Below are positions 30,594 to 40,341 of a DNA stretch of 64,000 nt, in pieces. The translations under genes were made by a program, and so were the position numbers. A model generated the notes under the pieces. That model worked only from the letters and a program-made list of their open reading frames with translations. It searched no databases and was not told the origin of the DNA. The DNA lies in the NCBI GenBank assembly GCA_018303925.1, contig JAGVXF010000007.1, positions 56,775 to 120,774 of the forward strand, given 5' to 3'. Position 1 is the first letter of the stretch; each line of letters starts with the position of its first letter. Source of the stretch: Candidatus Pacearchaeota archaeon. GTDB taxonomy: Archaea; Nanobdellota; Nanobdellia; Pacearchaeales; GW2011-AR1.

Positions 30594-31319
30594 GTGAAAA
30601 TGAACAAAAAAGCACAGTTTTATTTTTTGGCAATAATTCTTCTTGCCGCAATTTTTATAGGATTTGTTACAATTTCAAATAAAACAGTTTATACAGGCGC
30701 CCTAAAACTTTCTCATACTGAAGCGAGCATAAATTCAGAGATTTCAAGCCTTCTTGATTATTTTTCAAGAGAGCAAATTTCTGATTCAACCCAAAAAACA
30801 ATTCTGACTGATTTCTCTGTTTCTTATATAAATGAGATTGGAATAGATAAGGATGTTTTTTTTATTTTTGGAAAATTCCCCACGGTGACCTTATCCGGGA
30901 ACAGAGTTACCGGAACAAATCTGTCAGTTAACACAGGAAGCGGGGATATCTATGTTAATAATGTGGGAATTTTTCAAACAGATTATACTCTTTCAGGGAC
31001 TAACGTTACTAAAGTGAGTCTTGACGGAGTTGAGTACAATTTTACTTTTTACTCGGGACAAAATGTTTATTACCTTCTAAAAGCAGTTTCAAATAACCAA
31101 ACTTTTATATCCAGCGGAGGAACACTTTCAAGCCAGTTGATTGATTACTGCAACGACGGGGTTTTTGACAATGGAGAGGAAGGGCTTGACTGCGGAGGAA
31201 GCTGTCCAAATGAATGTGAGTACGATACATGTAATCAGAATAGCCTTCAGGACAATGGAGAAACAGGAGTGGATTGCGGAGGAGGAATCTGTCCCCCATG
31301 CGATTTTGTAGGAGTCTGA
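30594..31319 (+). CDS. Pilin-like (class III signal peptide candidate) Cys-rich surface protein
   Basis: N-terminus MKMNKKAQFYFLAIILLAAIFIGFV: a basic stretch followed by a hydrophobic helix, as in archaeal type IV prepilins (possible KKA/Q cleavage). The C-terminus has two NG-EEG-DCGG-C modules. Confidence 0.5.
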   Translation: MKMNKKAQFYFLAIILLAAIFIGFVTISNKTVYTGALKLSHTEASINSEISSLLDYFSREQISDSTQKTILTDFSVSYINEIGIDKDVFFIFGKFPTVTLSGNRVTGTNLSVNTGSGDIYVNNVGIFQTDYTLSGTNVTKVSLDGVEYNFTFYSGQNVYYLLKAVSNNQTFISSGGTLSSQLIDYCNDGVFDNGEEGLDCGGSCPNECEYDTCNQNSLQDNGETGVDCGGGICPPCDFVGV

Positions 31320-31361: not shown

Positions 31362-31772
31362 ATGAAATTCAAATTTTTAGCCCATACAGCAGATTTAAAA
31401 TTTAAAGCTTACGGAAAAACCGTCGAGGAAGTTTTTATTAATTCGGCAAAAGCGCTTATGAGTCAGATATTTTCGGGAAGAGTGAAAGAGAAAGAAAAAA
31501 TAAAAATAAACCTTTCAGGAAAAGATTATGAAAGCCTCTTGTATAATTTTTTGGAGGAAATTATTTTCTTGATTGATTCGAAGGGATTTCTGGTTTCGGA
31601 AGTCAAAGATTTAAAAATTGACAAAAAGAGTTTTAAGCTCTCAGGAGTTTTTGAAGGGGATTCAGGAGAAAACTATGAGGTTCACACGCATATTAAGGCT
31701 GTAACTTACAATGAAATGTTTGTAAAGCGTGAAAGAGGAAAGTGGGTTAGCCAGGTTGTTTTGGATGTTTAA
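31362..31772 (+). CDS. Archease (RtcB activator)
   Basis: N-terminal FLAHTADLKFKAYG matches the archease HTAD motif. Size and profile are typical of archease. RtcB lies 1.4 kb downstream. Confidence 0.85.
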   Translation: MKFKFLAHTADLKFKAYGKTVEEVFINSAKALMSQIFSGRVKEKEKIKINLSGKDYESLLYNFLEEIIFLIDSKGFLVSEVKDLKIDKKSFKLSGVFEGDSGENYEVHTHIKAVTYNEMFVKRERGKWVSQVVLDV

Positions 31773-31824: not shown

Positions 31825-32607
31825 ATGATAAATGAAATAATCAGACCAATTGTCAAAGTGGGAAACAGTTCAGGGGTGGTTTTGCCTAAGAACTGGTACG
31901 GGGGAAAAGCAAAGATTGAACTTGTTGAGAAACCGCTCAATATAAAAAAAGATCTTCTTGAAATTTTAGAAGGATATCTTGCAAAAGTTTTGGGAGTTTA
32001 TCTTTCCGGAAGTTATGCGAGAGGGGAGGAAAAAGAAAGTTCGGATGTGGATGTGTTAGTTATAACTTCAGATTTAAATAAAGTGATAAAAAAAGGAAAA
32101 TATTATATAATTTTAATTTCAAAAAAGATTTTAGAAAACACCCTTAAAAAAAACGTTTTGCCTCTTCTCCCCATGGTTAAAGAAGCAAAAACTATTTTGA
32201 ATGAAAGCCTGATTCGAGAATATAAAGGAACCCTTTTAACAAAAAGGAATTTGAAGTTCCATCTTGAAACCACAAAGTCTGCTCTTGAAATTAACAAGTC
32301 TTTAGTTTTACTGGATAAAGAAAAGAACTTGAATTCTTCGGATGGGGTTTCTTATTCTCTTGTTCTTAGATTAAGAGGAGTTTACATTGTTGATTGCCTG
32401 ATTAAAAATAAGATGTGGTCAACAAAAGAATTAAAGAATCTTATAAAAAAAGTATCTGGTTCTTCAGAAGCATATTCCGGGTACCTGCGTGTTAAAAATG
32501 ATGAGAAGAATCAGGAGAACCTGAAAACTGAAGAAGCCGAAAAAATCATAAATTATGTTTCCAAGAAAATCAATGAACAGGAAAAATGGCTAAGAAAAAT
32601 AAAATAG
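31825..32607 (+). CDS. MazE/AbrB-like swapped-hairpin domain fused to a minimal nucleotidyltransferase (MntA-like), paralog 1
   Basis: N-terminal VKVGNSSGVVLPKNW (MazE/SpoVT-AbrB-like). NTase motif GSYARGEEKESSDVDVLV (GS...D.D). C-terminal helical domain. About 35-40% identical to the 34880 ORF. Confidence 0.6.
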   Translation: MINEIIRPIVKVGNSSGVVLPKNWYGGKAKIELVEKPLNIKKDLLEILEGYLAKVLGVYLSGSYARGEEKESSDVDVLVITSDLNKVIKKGKYYIILISKKILENTLKKNVLPLLPMVKEAKTILNESLIREYKGTLLTKRNLKFHLETTKSALEINKSLVLLDKEKNLNSSDGVSYSLVLRLRGVYIVDCLIKNKMWSTKELKNLIKKVSGSSEAYSGYLRVKNDEKNQENLKTEEAEKIINYVSKKINEQEKWLRKIK

Positions 32608-32765
32608 AAAAAAGCATCAAAAGTTTTAGTAAGAGAATTGAAGAACATAAAAAGAAAATCCAAAATTTTTCCGGGAAAAATGATCTTGTCATTGGATACT
32701 GGAAAAATGAAATAAAACATTTTAAAGATATGAAGAAAGAAAAAGAAAAGAAATTAAGAAAGTGA
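32586..32765 (+). CDS. Small basic protein (59 aa), paralog of the 34680 ORF
   Basis: ATG at 32586 overlaps the 3' end of the upstream NTase gene by 22 nt. It shares KSF.K.(I/V)E.H..KI.N..G.....YW..EI with the 34680..34880 ORF. Confidence 0.35.
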   Translation: MAKKNKIEKSIKSFSKRIEEHKKKIQNFSGKNDLVIGYWKNEIKHFKDMKKEKEKKLRK

Positions 32766-32803: not shown

Positions 32804-33010
32804 TTATTTCTTCCAGTCAACATTCTTAAACTCATATTTTGTTGCAATTAAGATTATGTCCACAATCCACCATATACCGATTCCTCCAAAAGTTATTAGT
32901 TTTAAAATTCCAGTTCCTATTTTTCCGAGGATAAATCTGTCCACACCAAAGAATCCAAAAACTATAGATATTACAAGAACCAAAACCCAGTCTACTTTTT
33001 TCTTTGCCAT
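32804..33010 (-). CDS. TM2-domain small membrane protein
   Basis: GFFGVDRFILGKIGTGILKLITFGGIGIWWIVD matches the TM2 domain pattern (G..G.HRFYLG...G..QL.T.GG.G.WW..D). Confidence 0.6.
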   Translation of the reverse strand: MAKKKVDWVLVLVISIVFGFFGVDRFILGKIGTGILKLITFGGIGIWWIVDIILIATKYEFKNVDWKK

Positions 33011-33215: not shown

Positions 33216-34622
33216 ATGGAAAACTTCAGGCATGAAATAAAAAAAGAAGATGAAATGAATGTTTCGGGAGTAATTTATGCATCTGAAAAAATTTACGAGG
33301 CAATTAAGAAAGACAAAACTATTGAGCAGGTTAAAAATGTCGCAAAACTTCCGGGAATTGTCCGTGAGTCAATTGCACTCCCTGACTGCCATCAAGGTTA
33401 TGGTTTTTGCATCGGGGGGGTTGCTGCTTTTGACTTGAAGAAAGGGGTGATTTGCCCTGGGGGCATAGGGTATGATATAAATTGCTCGGTAAGATTACTC
33501 AAAACGAACCTTAAAAAAGAGGATATTTTAAAAAAACAAAAAGAGGTTCTTGAAACCCTTTACAAGAAAATTCCGTCAGGGGTTGGTCACGGGAGTCCTT
33601 TTCAGATTAGTTACAAAGAACTGGATAAACTTTTAGATAGGGGAGCAAAATATATGATTGAAAAAGGTTACGGAATTCCCGAAGATTATTTATACAGTGA
33701 GGAAGAAGGATGCATGAAAAATGCTGATTCCCAAAAAATTTCAAAAAGAGCAAAGCAAAGAGGGATTGGGCAAATAGGGACGATTGGCGCCGGAAATCAT
33801 TTTTTAGAAGTCCAAAGTGTTGAAGAAATTTATGACAAAAAAACCGCCGAAGTTTACGGACTCTCTAAAGGGCAGATTGTAGTGATGATTCATTGCGGTT
33901 CAAGGGGGCTTGGTCATCAGGTTGCGTCGGATTATATTAAGTTAATGGAAGATAAATATGGAATAAAAAATCTGCCTGACAGGGAATTAATAAACGCACC
34001 GATAAATTCTGAATTAGGAAAAGATTATTTTTCAGCAATGGGTGCTGCTGCAAATTTTGCTTTTGCTAATAAACAGCTTATTACATATTGGGTTCGTGAG
34101 GCTTTAACAAATTTATTTTACGAAAAGAAAGTAAAGGTTGAAGTTCTTTATGATGTTTGCCACAACATAGCAAAGATTGAAGAGTATTTTGTGGGGGGTA
34201 GAAAAGTGAAAGTTTGTGTCCATAGGAAGGGCGCAACAAGGGCATTCGGAAAAGGAAGAATTGAAATTCCTGAAAAATACAGGAGCGTTGGGCAACCCGT
34301 TTTAATTCCGGGCTCAATGGGAACAGCATCCTATGTAATGGTTGGGCGCAAGAAATCAGAAGAATTAACCTTTGGTTCATCTGTTCACGGCGCCGGAAGA
34401 CTCATGAGTAGAAGTCACGCAGTAAAAAACCTTAACGGAGAAAAAATAAAAAAGGACCTGAAAAAGATAGGTGTTGAAGTTGGCGTCGGGAGTCTCAGAG
34501 GGTTAACAGAGGAAGCTCCAGAAGTTTACAAAGATATAGACGAAGTTGTAAGAGTTGTTGATTCACTTGGAATTAGTCAAAAGGTTGCAAGAATGAAACC
34601 TTTGATTGTTATTAAGGGATAA
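33216..34622 (+). CDS. rtcB: RNA-splicing ligase RtcB
   Basis: Full RtcB motif set in order: PDCHQGYG, GYDINCSVR, GNHFLEVQ, CGSRGLGHQVA, CHNIA, HRKGATRA, GSMGTASY and VHGAGR. Confidence 0.95.
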   Translation: MENFRHEIKKEDEMNVSGVIYASEKIYEAIKKDKTIEQVKNVAKLPGIVRESIALPDCHQGYGFCIGGVAAFDLKKGVICPGGIGYDINCSVRLLKTNLKKEDILKKQKEVLETLYKKIPSGVGHGSPFQISYKELDKLLDRGAKYMIEKGYGIPEDYLYSEEEGCMKNADSQKISKRAKQRGIGQIGTIGAGNHFLEVQSVEEIYDKKTAEVYGLSKGQIVVMIHCGSRGLGHQVASDYIKLMEDKYGIKNLPDRELINAPINSELGKDYFSAMGAAANFAFANKQLITYWVREALTNLFYEKKVKVEVLYDVCHNIAKIEEYFVGGRKVKVCVHRKGATRAFGKGRIEIPEKYRSVGQPVLIPGSMGTASYVMVGRKKSEELTFGSSVHGAGRLMSRSHAVKNLNGEKIKKDLKKIGVEVGVGSLRGLTEEAPEVYKDIDEVVRVVDSLGISQKVARMKPLIVIKG

Positions 34623-34679: not shown

Positions 34680-34880
34680 ATGGGCAAAGACATCAAACAT
34701 ATGAAGAAACTGCGCAAAAAAAGATTAAAATCGTTTAGAAAGCAAGTGGAAAAACACGAGGAAAAAATTGAAAATGAGAAGGGAAGGTTTGATACAACCA
34801 AAGATTACTGGGAAAAAGAAATAGATGAAAAATTTTTAAAAAAGATCGAAGAAGATGAAAATTATCTGGAGGAAAAATAA
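34680..34880 (+). CDS. Small basic protein (66 aa), paralog of the 32586 ORF
   Basis: Shares the conserved KSFRK.VEKHEEKIEN..G.....YWEKEI core with the 32586..32765 ORF. Its stop codon overlaps the ATG of the downstream NTase gene. Confidence 0.4.
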   Translation: MGKDIKHMKKLRKKRLKSFRKQVEKHEEKIENEKGRFDTTKDYWEKEIDEKFLKKIEEDENYLEEK

Positions 34881-35653
34881 TGGAAATACAAATTAAAAAG
34901 GCTGTCAAATCGGGGAATTCTTCAGCTGTAATTCTTCCAAAATCATGGTTGAATAAAGAAGTCCGAGTTGAACTTGTTGAAAAGTCCCCCGAAAAAATTC
35001 TTTCCGAAGTTCTGAATATTGTTGGAAATTATCTTGATTTAAAAAAGATAATAGGAGTTTATCTTGTGGGAAGTTATGCCCGTGGAGAAGAAGATGAGGG
35101 AAGTGACATTGATATTCTGGTTCTAACTGATGATTTAGACAGAAAGATGATTTCCAAAGGAGAGTATAATGTTTTAATCTTGTCTTCAAATCTATTAAAA
35201 CAAAAATTAGATAGGGATCTTCTCCCTATTGGGCCAATGATTCGAGAAGCGAAGCCTCTTTTGAATCTTAGCTATCTTGATTTAATAAAAGTAGAGGTTA
35301 CAAAAAAGAATGTTTCTTGGTACCTTCAAACTACAAAAGACAAATTAAGAATCATAAAAAGTATCCTTTCCAGAACAAAACTTAAATTTCTCGATAGTAG
35401 AATTGCTTATACTTTGGTTTTGAGAATAAGGACTCTTTATTTAATTAATAAGATGATAAAAAATGAAAAACCGTCAAAAAAGGAACTTATAGAAATAATA
35501 AAAAGCACTTCCGGAGGAGAAAATGCTTACAGAGGATATTTGGATGTAAAAAATAATTCAAAGAAAAAAAGAGAAATCAGCTCAGATGAAGCTCGGGGGC
35601 TGTATGATTATTTGAAGAATCTTTTATCTGATATTAAGATGCAATTAAACTGA
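34880..35653 (+). CDS. MazE/AbrB-like domain fused to a minimal nucleotidyltransferase (MntA-like), paralog 2
   Basis: N-terminal VKSGNSSAVILPKSW. NTase motif GSYARGEEDEGSDIDILV. Same architecture as the 31825 ORF. Confidence 0.6.
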   Translation: MEIQIKKAVKSGNSSAVILPKSWLNKEVRVELVEKSPEKILSEVLNIVGNYLDLKKIIGVYLVGSYARGEEDEGSDIDILVLTDDLDRKMISKGEYNVLILSSNLLKQKLDRDLLPIGPMIREAKPLLNLSYLDLIKVEVTKKNVSWYLQTTKDKLRIIKSILSRTKLKFLDSRIAYTLVLRIRTLYLINKMIKNEKPSKKELIEIIKSTSGGENAYRGYLDVKNNSKKKREISSDEARGLYDYLKNLLSDIKMQLN

Positions 35654-35937
35654 TTTTATATGGGCACAAATTTTATAAATATGAAATAATCGGAGGATCT
35701 GCAAAGAATATTTCTGAAAATCTAAAGAAAAAATATTACAAAATTGAATGGAGAGAAATTGTGAGGGCAAGAGATTTAATTGTCCATAGTTCTTTTAAAA
35801 TTGATTCCGATGCAATTTTTGGGATTATGGAAAAAGATTTTCCGATTTTAAAAGATCAAATTGATGAAATTTTGGAGAGCGGATGTGAATTCAAAAAAAC
35901 AAAAATATTTATAAAACACTTTAACCTAATTTTTAAA
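35638..35937 (+). pseudogene. HEPN (HepT/DUF86-type) C-terminal remnant without a start codon
   Basis: The open frame reads ...KYEIIGGSAKNISENLKKKYYKIEWREIVRARDLIVHSSFKIDSDAIFGIMEKDFPILKDQI..., which matches the HepT C-terminal half (IIGEA.KNLSE..K..YP.I.W..I.G.RN.LVH.Y..ID...VW). The roughly 40 aa of N-terminal HepT sequence is missing, and there is no ATG, GTG or TTG at a sensible position. It overlaps the NTase stop and ends at the start of the giant gene. Confidence 0.45.
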
Positions 35938-38900
35938 TGATAAAAGAGGGAAAGGTAATCTTTAGTTTATTATTTTTGCTAATCTTTGTTGTTGTGATTT
36001 TTTCAAGTTCATTTGTTTTAGGAGAATTAACATGTGCTGGGGGGACATTGACGGGAACTTACGCAGGATGTGATGGAGATTATGAGAATACCCAAACAGG
36101 AAGTTGCTGGTATAGACCCCCAATTTACTACCCCAATGGAACTGCGATGTACAATTTCAAGAGTTTGGGTCTTCGGGCAGAAGTTTATTGTTGGAATTTT
36201 GAAACTCCCGCTTTGTGTGGTTCCAATGACGAATATTGTAAATGGTATCATGGGCAAAATTCTTGTTATGGTCTGAGTCAGGAAAATTGCGGGTCAATAT
36301 ATTATCCTACTTGTTCTCCCCAATATTCAGATTATACCTGCTCTTGTCCTTTAGGGCAGCACAGTGATTTGGCAAGTACCCCTTTTGCATCATGCAGTGG
36401 AACTTTTGTGGAAAATTATACATCTAGTTATTGTTATTGGAGGGAGGGTGTAAAGGCTAATGCCATAAGTCAAGGTGAGTATTGCAGTTATTCTGATGCC
36501 GGTTCTTGCAGAGGTGCCGATGAATTCTGTGAATGGAATATCTTATCTTACTCAGCTACTTTTTCATGTATTGGATTTAATGAGCAAACATGTATGTTTA
36601 CTTCAGGATGCGTAGCGTCTTATGATACCAATTATCAATGTGTTTCAAATACATGCTCAGATACCGATGGGGGTTATGTTCCCGAAATACAAGGAACAGT
36701 TAGCGCTCAAAGTGGGGATACTGGGACAGATTTTTGTGAGGATGGTTATTTTTTAACTGAGTATTATTGTTCGAATAGTGTCGGATTCTCAGGACAGGAA
36801 ACCTGTAACTTTGGTTGTTTAAATGGAGAGTGCAAGCCTGTTCCTTGCCCAAGTTCTCAAGAAGGGGTAAATGGAGGAAACCTTGGATGTATTGATAAAA
36901 TAATTTCTAATTCTCATATTATTTATTCAACTTCTTCATGTACTAGTTTAAGTCAAATTTGTTCTGCATGTAATTCGGGTTATTATCCTTCTTATGATTA
37001 CGCTACAGAATCTTATATTTGTCACGCTATCCCTGATACTTGCTCTGACAGCGACGGGATGAATTATAATACCCGAGGGACCGTGAATGCAAGTAGGGGA
37101 TATTCAGGAACTGATTATTGCGCTGATTCCGGGGGAGACCCAGGGGCTCCAACTTCAGAAGGGGATATTTTATGGGAGTTTGGATGTTCAGGAACGACCG
37201 GAGTTAAAAATATTTATGGGGATTGCCAGTATGGATGTTCAGAGGGAAAGTGTAATCCTACTCCTCCCCTCCCAGATTGTCCTGTTACCCAAACTGGAAC
37301 TATATATGTAGGATGTGTACAGGATCAAGATATAAATTCAAATCTAATTAACTATGCCCATTCAACAAATGATTTATGTAGTGATGAATATGTGTGTTTT
37401 CAATGTAATTCAGGATACATCTGGGACGGAAATAATTGTGTTCTTAAATGTCCAAGTCCACAACCAGGAACGAGCGGGGGAAATTTGGGATGTTTAGAAA
37501 ATCAGGTTTTATATTCTTACGTTTTGTATCCCACCTCTTCATGTACTAGTTTAAGTCAAATTTGTTCTGCATGTAATTCTGGTTATTATCCTTCTTATGA
37601 TCACGCTACAGAGTCTTATATTTGTGTTCCTGTGTCTATTTCATGTACGGATACAGATTTAGGTCAAGCTTATCCTGAATATTTCAAAGGGTCTCTAACT
37701 GCAACGACGGGGATAACAAATGGTATGGATAATTGTGCAGATTCAACACATTTAAATGAATATTTTTGTGATGCATCAAACCGAGGTTCACTTGATTCCA
37801 ATCATCTTTGCCCAAAAAACTATGGTTGTAATAGTGGCGCATGCAGAGACTTTTATTTTGTTGGCACATCAGATGGTAATAAAATTTTATCTTTAGGTCA
37901 GGGAACAACTCTTCCTAAGACGATTAAATTTGTTGGTTCAGCTTATTCAGGGTCAGGAGGAGGGTCTTTTTCACTTTATGAAAGGGCTTGGACAAATGAA
38001 TTCTGGGGATGGTGTGATATTTGTGCAGCAGATACTCTTGTTGGGACTTATTCAGGAAATACTCAGGATTTTAACGGCGATGGGGTTAATGATTATTTAA
38101 GTGACAGTTGGACTTTAAATTCAAATGTTTTAAATTCTTTAGAATCTGATGGGCCGTATGACAAGTATGAATTTTATTTTAAAGTTGGTTCTTATCAAAG
38201 TTCTGGTTTGTTGGTTGATCCAAGTCTTGACACCTGCCACGACGAAATTCAAAATGGTGGCGAAGAAGGTATTGATTGTGGTCCTGTGTGTGGAAATGAA
38301 TGTCTTTTTTGTCAGGACAGCGATGGAGGGCAAATTTATGATGTTCAAGGAAGGATAATTGCAAACAATGGGTTACATACAAGCGGGACAGATTTTTGTG
38401 ATGATTCAACTCATTTAAATGAATATTATTGTAGTGCTGCTAATGCAGGTTCTTTAGAGATACGCCACTATTGTGGGGCTGGAAATGCATGTTCAAATGG
38501 AGTTTGCACAGGAGAGCAAATTCCTAATTCAATTGTTTATTGGGCTTATAAAACCTATCAGGAGGCACCCGGATATTTAGAGGTATTAAACTCAAGTATT
38601 GGTTCTTTTGGAAGAAGATTAGTTTTAACTTATCCAGAACCTTCTCTTAGTTCATTTCAGATATTTAAAGAAAGCAATGCAATTTTTATTCCCGATACAT
38701 TGGTAAGAGAAGAGTATGGTTCATCATTTTCTAATTTTTATTTTTATGATTGGATTCCTTCTTATGCGGATTTTATGAATGCAGGAACTCCGACTTTTAG
38801 CAATAATACATATAGATTTTACTTTAAGGTGGACGATGGAGATAGTCGTTTAACAAGCAATTATTGGGATGTTTATGTAATTGGAGAGGTTCCTTCATGT

Positions 38901-39545
38901 ACTGATGGAGCGCAGAATGGGGATGAGGAAGGAGTTGACTGTGGAGGAAGCTGTCCAAACGAATGTGAACCAGATATAGATCAGTGCCTTGGAATAGATT
39001 TTTGTATGGATTATACCAGCGAGGCGACATGTAATTTAGATAATTGTAGTGTTGCACAATATAGTGGTTATGCTCCTTCCGGTACAACTCCTTTGTGTAT
39101 TTGGTATTCGGTAGTTCCCGAGGAATGTATCTTTGGCTATTCAGGAAGTAATTATGGGGTTTGTATGCACCACGATAGCCCGACAAATGACAGTTGTGAG
39201 GATGACGGTTTTTTAACTCATATATGGACTAATGAATATTCCTGGGATTTAGATAATGCTTTTTCAACCCAGCAGGCATGTGAGGTTTATACATCTGAGT
39301 GTTCAGGCAATTGTGTCTTAAGGGGAAGTTCATGGCATTGTGATCCCAATGGAGAAGAAACAACGTGCTTAAATGGAGAAACTACTGCAACAATTCCATG
39401 CCCTGCTCAAATACAACTTGGATTTTTTGATTGGCAGAATGTGGTAGTTGCTATTCTTGTAATTTTCCTTTTGTATTTAATTCTTTTGAAGAATAAGAAG
39501 ACACAAACAGAAAAATCCTCGAAAGGCAAAAAGAGAAAAAAATAG
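35937..39545 (+). CDS. Giant secreted Cys-rich modular surface protein (1202 aa) with C-terminal TM anchor and basic tail
   Basis: Signal peptide. Four copies of an approximately 60-aa module C.D[ST]DG..GT....G.D.C.D...L.EY[YF]C...C..GC..G[AK]C. Two NG-EEG-DCGG-C-NEC modules. An approximately 200-aa tandem duplication. C-terminal TM AILVIFLLYLILL followed by KKTQTEKSSKGKKRKK. Confidence 0.7.
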   Translation: MIKEGKVIFSLLFLLIFVVVIFSSSFVLGELTCAGGTLTGTYAGCDGDYENTQTGSCWYRPPIYYPNGTAMYNFKSLGLRAEVYCWNFETPALCGSNDEYCKWYHGQNSCYGLSQENCGSIYYPTCSPQYSDYTCSCPLGQHSDLASTPFASCSGTFVENYTSSYCYWREGVKANAISQGEYCSYSDAGSCRGADEFCEWNILSYSATFSCIGFNEQTCMFTSGCVASYDTNYQCVSNTCSDTDGGYVPEIQGTVSAQSGDTGTDFCEDGYFLTEYYCSNSVGFSGQETCNFGCLNGECKPVPCPSSQEGVNGGNLGCIDKIISNSHIIYSTSSCTSLSQICSACNSGYYPSYDYATESYICHAIPDTCSDSDGMNYNTRGTVNASRGYSGTDYCADSGGDPGAPTSEGDILWEFGCSGTTGVKNIYGDCQYGCSEGKCNPTPPLPDCPVTQTGTIYVGCVQDQDINSNLINYAHSTNDLCSDEYVCFQCNSGYIWDGNNCVLKCPSPQPGTSGGNLGCLENQVLYSYVLYPTSSCTSLSQICSACNSGYYPSYDHATESYICVPVSISCTDTDLGQAYPEYFKGSLTATTGITNGMDNCADSTHLNEYFCDASNRGSLDSNHLCPKNYGCNSGACRDFYFVGTSDGNKILSLGQGTTLPKTIKFVGSAYSGSGGGSFSLYERAWTNEFWGWCDICAADTLVGTYSGNTQDFNGDGVNDYLSDSWTLNSNVLNSLESDGPYDKYEFYFKVGSYQSSGLLVDPSLDTCHDEIQNGGEEGIDCGPVCGNECLFCQDSDGGQIYDVQGRIIANNGLHTSGTDFCDDSTHLNEYYCSAANAGSLEIRHYCGAGNACSNGVCTGEQIPNSIVYWAYKTYQEAPGYLEVLNSSIGSFGRRLVLTYPEPSLSSFQIFKESNAIFIPDTLVREEYGSSFSNFYFYDWIPSYADFMNAGTPTFSNNTYRFYFKVDDGDSRLTSNYWDVYVIGEVPSCTDGAQNGDEEGVDCGGSCPNECEPDIDQCLGIDFCMDYTSEATCNLDNCSVAQYSGYAPSGTTPLCIWYSVVPEECIFGYSGSNYGVCMHHDSPTNDSCEDDGFLTHIWTNEYSWDLDNAFSTQQACEVYTSECSGNCVLRGSSWHCDPNGEETTCLNGETTATIPCPAQIQLGFFDWQNVVVAILVIFLLYLILLKNKKTQTEKSSKGKKRKK
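36933..37023 (+). repeat. Internal direct repeat copy A (about 91 nt) within the giant gene
   Basis: tcttcatgtactagtttaagtcaaatttgttctgcatgtaattcgggttattatccttcttatgattacgctacagaatcttatatttgt is repeated 603 nt downstream with 3 mismatches. Confidence 0.85.
37536..37626 (+). repeat. Internal direct repeat copy B (about 91 nt) within the giant gene
   Basis: Near-identical to 36933..37023 (g/t, t/c and a/g differences). It encodes SSCTSLSQICSACNSGYYPSYD(Y/H)ATESYIC in both copies. Confidence 0.85.
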
Positions 39546-39548
39546 ACG

Positions 39549-39995
39549 TTAATTATTATTTATAAATTTTATAATTTCTTCCTTGAATTTTTCAAAATCC
39601 TGCAACTTTTCTGACAAGATTTCATATATGATTTCGTTGTCGGTTTCCCCATATTTATGAACGAGAATATTTCTAAATCCTTTCATTCCCATCAATATTT
39701 CTTTTAATTCTTTTGAAATTACTCCTTTCTTGTAAGTTTTTTCTATTAGATCCTCTTCTCCCGAGGGGAGTCCCAATTTAAGCCCGGAAGTGATTATGTT
39801 TAGGATGTCAATAATTGTTTCTATAGATATTTGCAATAATCTTTCGCATGCCCTTTTATCTTTTATGGAATTTTTGTAAATTTCTAAATTTTCAGGAATT
39901 ATCTCTTCAAGTTCGGAAAGATATTTATTCAATTCATCTATCTTTGATAAAATCCTTTTATTATCTAATTTTGACATTTTCGAGGTAACTATCAT
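39549..39995 (-). CDS. HEPN-domain toxin-like protein (HepT/DUF86 family)
   Basis: C-terminal GFRNILVHKYGETDNEIIYEIL carries the R-x4-6-H HEPN motif (RNILVH). It lies downstream of, and overlaps, the MNT gene. Confidence 0.75.
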   Translation of the reverse strand: MIVTSKMSKLDNKRILSKIDELNKYLSELEEIIPENLEIYKNSIKDKRACERLLQISIETIIDILNIITSGLKLGLPSGEEDLIEKTYKKGVISKELKEILMGMKGFRNILVHKYGETDNEIIYEILSEKLQDFEKFKEEIIKFINNN

Positions 39996-40341
39996 AAATT
40001 TTTTTGTAGAATCCGAATTCTTTTATTGTTTCAAAAGCAATCTCGTACATTTTATCCTCATCTTTTATTAAAATAAATTTTCCTTCTTTTAATATTCTTA
40101 TCTTAATATAAACGGGCAATTGCTCAAATATATGAATATCTAATTTTGAATCGAATTTTGAAGCATATTTTAATTTTATTTTTGACATTTCTTTATTGCT
40201 TTTCTTTTCTTTTAAAACCAGCGCAATGTCAATATCCCGGTAATCTTCTTTTCTTGCATATGATCCAAACAAAGCAACAGCTAAAACTTCTTTGTCTTTT
40301 TCTGCTTCTTTAATAATCTTGGAGGTAATTTCTTTCATCAA
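39961..40341 (-). CDS. Minimal nucleotidyltransferase (MntA-like antitoxin)
   Basis: LFGSYARKEDYRDIDIAL (GS...D.D). 126 aa. Overlaps the downstream HEPN gene by 35 nt. Confidence 0.8.
   Translation of the reverse strand: MMKEITSKIIKEAEKDKEVLAVALFGSYARKEDYRDIDIALVLKEKKSNKEMSKIKLKYASKFDSKLDIHIFEQLPVYIKIRILKEGKFILIKDEDKMYEIAFETIKEFGFYKKIYDSYLENVKIR

Follow-up and report, generated by a model that had tools for sequence, protein, structure and literature searches.

A 5'-truncated HepT toxin gene, probably a pseudogene, between a nucleotidyltransferase gene and a giant surface-protein gene of a groundwater DPANN archaeon

An open frame of 100 codons in contig JAGVXF010000007.1, from a Candidatus Pacearchaeota archaeon, encodes part of a HepT toxin of the DUF86 family. 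It lies between the gene for a nucleotidyltransferase (NTase) of 257 amino acids (aa) and the gene for a giant surface protein of 1202 aa, and the spacer of 283 nucleotides (nt) between these two genes is the DNA that holds it. Positions refer to the window, the whole stretch of 64,000 nt that was analysed. We conclude, with a probability of roughly 0.8, that the frame is what is left of a gene for a short type VII toxin (DUF86/HepT): a non-functional pseudogene, truncated at its 5' end, that has become fixed in a single groundwater population of DPANN (Pacearchaeota-like) archaea. The frame is opened by a TAA at 35635-35637; its translation (35638-35937) begins DAIKLILYGHKFYKYEIIGGSAKNISENLKKKYYKIEWREIVRARDLIVHSSFKID and reads in full DAIKLILYGHKFYKYEIIGGSAKNISENLKKKYYKIEWREIVRARDLIVHSSFKIDSDAIFGIMEKDFPILKDQIDEILESGCEFKKTKIFIKHFNLIFK, and its TGA at 35938-35940 overlaps the ATG (35937) of the giant gene as ATGA. 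The opening stop, the reading and the ATGA overlap had been given by a first-pass annotation made by a model from the letters of the DNA, and coordinates and translation agreed with it. At the other end, the NTase gene overlaps the frame by 16 nt up to its stop codon at 35651-35653 (13 nt, 35638-35650, without the stop), the two frames being offset by -1. The remnant sequence was 100% identical in at least 22 independently assembled contigs from several groundwater samples; the truncation is therefore not an assembly or sequencing artefact. In the composition profile the remnant was AT-rich, resembling the spacers and the intact toxin-antitoxin (TA) pair of the window, and an Rfam scan of 35300-36200 matched no RNA family.

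HepT identity and the point of truncation

The Pfam HepT-like profile (PF01934) matched the frame with E = 2.6e-11 (43.7 bits, cutoff 23.5), residues 13-78 aligning with positions 32-120 of a profile of 120, and the NCBIfam HepT_toxin equivalog reached 16.9 bits (cutoff 60). With the fragment as query, phmmer was run exhaustively over 1.8 billion representatives and found 1529 relatives, the full-length ones being 110-118 aa long. When a subfamily profile built from 86 of the full-length relatives was run over the 1303 six-frame open reading frames (ORFs) of the window, it matched only two, the remnant (E = 6.6e-27, profile positions 43-111 of 116) and an intact HepT gene on the reverse strand beyond the giant gene (Table 1). 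In both the Pfam and the subfamily profile, the HepT/DUF86 identity proposed in the first-pass annotation exceeds chance by a wide margin. Searched by word matching, the 100-aa fragment retrieved nothing but the 59-aa gene call of the organism itself (see below), leaving no closer relative from which to trace its history, and a single-sequence search of the PDB with it gave nothing significant; in a profile search of solved structures, the nearest was the Shewanella oneidensis HepT SO_3166 (5YEP, 6M6U). The AlphaFold2 model of the 100-aa frame was all-helical (mean predicted local distance difference test score, pLDDT, 76.5), and a Foldseek comparison of this model with the PDB gave no significant match (best E ~1).

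Residue 14 of the fragment aligns with residue 43-46 of the full-length relatives. Counted by the open frame, ~30 residues are lost from the HepT N-terminus, and counted by detectable homology, ~42; the missing part is helix alpha1 with the alpha1-alpha2 loop, and alpha2-alpha5 are still encoded. The frame thus falls short of a complete HEPN domain (all helices, 110-150 aa). The fragment had been described as a C-terminal half of HepT that lacks about 40 N-terminal aa and any plausible start codon. The extent of the loss agrees with this alignment, and the part that remains is indeed C-terminal, but it amounts to about two thirds of the domain and not to half. Similarly, no start codon serves the full domain, as was claimed, but a canonical in-frame GTG does exist, at 35761, with a 59-aa product. 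There is no hidden N-terminal extension, reached from a non-canonical start, upstream of 35638, since all three frames contain stops there. At its 3' end HepT is whole (the match runs to profile position 120 of 120); the break is on the 5' side, at the point where the NTase gene ends.

Over alpha2-alpha5 the remnant resembles HepT of the type VII HepT/MntA systems (PF01934, short 110-118 aa subfamily; SO_3166), with which it shares the RX4H motif, the conserved Trp and the D-x-P-x-L-K C-terminal helix. Unlike these proteins, it has no alpha1, no alpha1-alpha2 loop, no full-length start, neither the E nor the A of the IGEA motif, no AMPylated Tyr and no cognate MNT gene. Its closest relatives are other N-terminally degenerate DUF86 relics from groundwater metagenomes, P0124 (62% identical, contig L017) and P0126 (49%, contigs L019-L021). 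Both are, like the remnant, truncated or degenerate at the N-terminus and without an adjacent MNT gene; in contrast to the remnant, both have retained the Tyr and the Trp, with Pfam scores of 63-66 bits, and they lie in different genomic contexts. P0124, on a contig of 742 bp and coverage 1, is itself degenerate and was of no help for synteny. P0126 (95 aa, TTG start) directly follows the gene of a 311-aa Fic-domain protein (AMPylase family), not an MNT gene, at 2501-2788 of L019 and also in L020 and L021, and one of the contigs that carry it comes from the same groundwater dataset.

Table 1. Features of the remnant and of the genes around it, in window coordinates.
Feature	Position	Strand	Basis
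HepT/DUF86 remnant, stop-to-stop open frame, 100 codons plus TGA	35638..35940	+	sequence, translation, Pfam
Recognisable HepT homology, residues 13-81, helices alpha2 to C-terminal helix of short 110-118 aa DUF86	35674..35880	+	Pfam, subfamily profile, alignment
B recognition element (BRE)/TATA-like 14-mer AAATTTTATAAATA within the remnant, similar to the 66-aa/NTase operon promoter	35668..35681	+	word matching; no start codon 25-30 nt downstream
G20-S21 in place of near-invariant E (97%) and A (95%) of the IGEA motif	35695..35700	+	comparison with 86 relatives
Only canonical in-frame start, GTG (V42), of the 59-aa ORF; GGAG 7 nt upstream	35761..35763	+	sequence, public gene calls
RX4H catalytic motif, kept as R45-D-L-I-V-H50	35770..35787	+	translation, residue comparison
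S52 in place of the Tyr (99% of 86 relatives) of RX4HXY	35791..35793	+	residue comparison; PMC7641770
TATA box TTTATAAA, centred 25 nt before the giant gene ATG, in the non-HepT tail of the remnant frame	35908..35915	+	promoter scan
66-aa small protein, conserved upstream partner of the NTase	34680..34880	+	neighbourhood comparison
257-aa NTase, full length: AbrB-like N-terminus, MNT core with GSX10DXD, helical C-domain; not a cognate antitoxin	34880..35653	+	
1202-aa lineage-specific Cys-rich surface protein	35937..39545	+	ORF list, homology searches
Intact HepT, 148 aa, canonical RX4HXY	39549..39995	-	
Intact small MntA, ~126 aa, overlapping the intact HepT	39961..40341	-	

Decay and other accounts of the fragment

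Compared with the 86 full-length relatives, the remnant retains G, W, R, H and P, and has lost two near-invariant residues of the IGEA motif as well as the Tyr of RX4HXY (Table 1); in addition, F stands in place of an 84%-conserved W. In HepT this Tyr is the acceptor of oligoAMPylation by MntA (PMC7641770). Profile scores were cross-validated over six random train/test splits, with relatives that were cut to the fragment's region. Over this region the fragment scored 88.7 bits (mean) against 106.7 ± 7.9 for intact relatives, ranking 0-1 from the bottom of ~41, even though these relatives had been selected by similarity to the fragment. The Pfam score per aligned residue was likewise lower for the remnant (~0.66 bits) than for P0124 and P0126 (~1.1-1.2). 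The loss of the N-terminus, the replaced residues and a profile score in the lowest range support the idea of a decayed toxin, as the first-pass annotation had put it. We infer that a small MntA-HepT cassette once lay downstream of the conserved operon of the 66-aa protein and the NTase, and that a deletion or rearrangement removed MntA together with the first 30-42 HepT codons, up to the NTase stop codon. What remained encodes alpha2-alpha5 with no start for a complete HEPN domain, is presumably no longer expressed, and has begun losing its near-invariant residues, the AMPylatable Tyr among them. The DNA now serves as the spacer between the NTase and giant genes, with the TATA box of the latter in its 3' tail. 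So read, the remnant is an ordinary toxin pseudogene of a known family and an already known kind, not a new system. Decayed TA genes are common, and this one, of little importance in itself, adds an example from a DPANN archaeon.

Several observations weigh against decay. The frame is still open over 100 codons in a context of 25-34% GC, for which we estimate a chance of roughly 1e-4, and the RX4H catalytic motif is kept. The ratio of nonsynonymous to synonymous divergence (dN/dS) between the remnant and P0124 was 0.15, a value that, with dS saturated, speaks of older history only; it indicates that most of the divergence arose under selection, so that inactivation would be recent or incomplete. 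All available contigs with the remnant are clonal (99.9-100% identical). Finally, the GTG at 35761 with its GGAG, and the BRE/TATA-like element 90 nt upstream, could drive the expression of a 59-aa peptide.

An alternative, which we consider unlikely, is that the frame is still translated into a short peptide derived from HEPN whose function is residual or newly acquired, perhaps that of a decoy for, or a modulator of, some other HEPN or NTase protein. The product would have 59 aa if begun at GTG 35761, ahead of which the frame contains no ATG, GTG or TTG, or ~96 aa if begun at a near-cognate CTG that overlaps the NTase stop codon (CTGA). Besides the open frame and the kept RX4H, such a peptide can claim that gene callers predict the 59-aa ORF (P0121, a hypothetical protein in public pipelines), that the GGAG stands at the same spacing from the GTG, 7 nt, as GGAGG from the NTase ATG, that the 14-mer AAATTTTATAAATA is identical to the consensus of two real promoters and that the AlphaFold2 model is all-helical. 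However, this model is the one that found no significant structural match; the 59-aa product is without three of the five helices and scored 20.3 bits with PF01934, under the Pfam cutoff; and the near-invariant residues are gone. Moreover, the GGAG derives from conserved Trp-Arg codons and is also found in L017, two of the four perfect 14-mers in the window fall in coding sequence, and no start codon follows the TATA of the 35668-35681 element at ~25-30 nt. Both signals can be simply explained by these findings. A live mini-HEPN is very unlikely: transcribed from the internal BRE/TATA-like element and translated from the GTG or a non-canonical start, it would carry RX4H without the AMPylatable Tyr, would use a tail helix in place of alpha1, and might serve as an RNase subunit insensitive to MntA or, by forming heterodimers with other HEPN proteins, as a decoy. 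With the pseudogene as the preferred reading, the public 59-aa "hypothetical protein" should be annotated as a HepT pseudogene fragment.

The remaining accounts turn on the two neighbouring genes. That the 257-aa NTase is the cognate MntA-type antitoxin and has outlived its toxin, as the first-pass annotation suggested of an "antitoxin-like NTase", might seem natural from its MNT domain with GSX10DXD (GSYARGEEDEGSDID), a motif general to MNT-type enzymes, from a position immediately before the fragment in the same orientation, which is how MntA-HepT operons are arranged, and from a weak NCBIfam MntA match (29.7 bits, cutoff 60). However, MntA is a single-domain minimal NTase of <150 aa (PMC7641770), and the 257-aa protein has extra domains at both ends. 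Its AlphaFold2 model (pLDDT 86) was closest to the two-domain kanamycin NTase 1KNY and to Hailong HalB 9DBJ (E ~2e-6), and MntA structures (7BXO) matched it over the MNT core only. It belongs to a family of its own, ~60% identical across Pacearchaeota, Woesearchaeota and Nanoarchaeota. Of 67 species-representative genomes with the NTase gene, 66 have a gene homologous to that of the 66-aa protein, ending at the NTase start, and none has DUF86/HepT directly downstream (in one, DUF86 lies 2.5 kb upstream). The spacers that follow the NTase in two relatives (L005, L008) are non-coding and show no HepT similarity. A small MNT gene of the cognate kind (<150 aa, GSX10DXD), which usually overlaps its HepT gene, is absent upstream of the remnant, the MNT-type genes of the window being the 257-aa NTase, a 260-aa paralog, which also has no HepT, and the MntA of the intact pair. 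We regard an antitoxin that outlived its toxin as highly improbable, and the NTase should not be named MntA antitoxin. Least probable of all is that NTase and fragment belong to a single NTase-HEPN protein, whether a frameshift joins them (a programmed one or one due to a sequencing error) or they are fused in the manner of FhepTA. Fused MNT-HEPN toxin-antitoxin proteins exist (PMC13000451), and here, too, an MNT ORF is followed by HEPN-coding sequence on the same strand, with frames that overlap by 13 nt and differ by -1. Unlike FhepTA, the two do not form one continuous ORF, since they are read in different frames interrupted by stops; only part of the HEPN domain is there, and helix alpha1 would be lacking even from the fusion. 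The overlap holds no X XXY YYZ slippery heptamer, and its sequence is the same in the independent assemblies. A search with the conceptual NTase+HepT fusion as query found >600 NTase homologs; the 120 listed were all of 254-273 aa (~55-64% identical; Pacearchaeota, Woesearchaeota and Nanoarchaeota), with C-termini that agree with the native, conserved end of the window NTase, and the matches listed contained only unfused NTases without PF01934. The ideas of a fusion and of a frameshift were both rejected on this result. As for the other neighbour, the giant gene had been proposed to have landed inside a HepT-MntA operon and to have left the fragment as a scar. The remnant does adjoin this gene via ATGA, HepT-family genes lie on both sides of it, and it is lineage-specific. 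It is the 5' end of HepT, beside the NTase, that is lost, however, and nothing is missing from the 3' end. MntA canonically precedes HepT (the full-length relative P0123 has a small MNT gene upstream, with a 4-nt ATGA overlap), so a gene landing after HepT would leave both MntA and the 5' part of HepT in place. Beyond the giant gene, HepT is intact, comes with an MntA of its own, is encoded on the other strand and shares only 26% identity with the remnant; these two genes make up a separate system and are not the second half of an operon that was split. A repeat search around the giant gene found no target-site duplications and no terminal, flanking direct or inverted repeats, only repeats internal to the gene and AT-rich promoter-like words, and in the composition profile its GC content was ordinary for the window, with no foreign-DNA signal. 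The comparison with relatives that lack the giant gene, proposed as a check, met with no public relatives at a useful distance. An insertion scar is accordingly given very little weight by us, and the pseudogene left by a 5' loss is preferred.

Neighbouring genes

The NTase and its small partner form a two-gene module of DPANN archaea, in which a 66-aa basic coiled-coil protein (motif DYWEKEI) precedes the AbrB-MNT-helical NTase (window 34680-35653, + strand; loci L022-L088). A paralogous module in the reverse order, a 260-aa NTase (42% identical) and then a 59-aa paralog of the small protein that overlaps its 3' end, is found at 31825-32765 (+). The two modules flank Archease (31362-31772) and RtcB (33216-34622), with a TM2-domain gene in between (32804-33010, -); in relatives the NTase module is not beside RtcB. 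In a low-coverage contig of the same population (L013, 2799-3568), which has one gap and one mismatch relative to the window, the NTase is split into calls of 154 and 66 aa, either by a rare frameshift variant or by an assembly error. Strongly conserved across Pacearchaeota, Woesearchaeota and Nanoarchaeota, the module of small basic protein and NTase is a more useful by-product of this analysis than the remnant.

The giant gene appears to have a promoter of its own. Perfect TTTAWAWA boxes peak at -25 from the ATG in the window (7 of 56 long ORFs, against 0.05 expected per offset), and the box TTTATAAA is likely the promoter of a leaderless giant-gene mRNA; the last ~20 codons of the remnant frame look like part of that promoter. 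As this TATA box sits at the modal -25 offset, the ATGA overlap of the remnant with the giant gene is probably incidental. The -25 peak suggests that many genes here are transcribed as leaderless mRNAs; genes internal to operons, such as the NTase, have GGAGG 7 nt upstream instead. A search of 5.8 billion protein clusters with the giant protein returned, besides itself, only one partial match of 33% identity, and no such protein was found near NTase homologs. The protein contains internal repeats (e.g., 36846-37022 and 37449-37625 at 79%), and a DCGG-x-C-P-x-EC motif is common to it and to a 241-aa ORF at 30594-31319.

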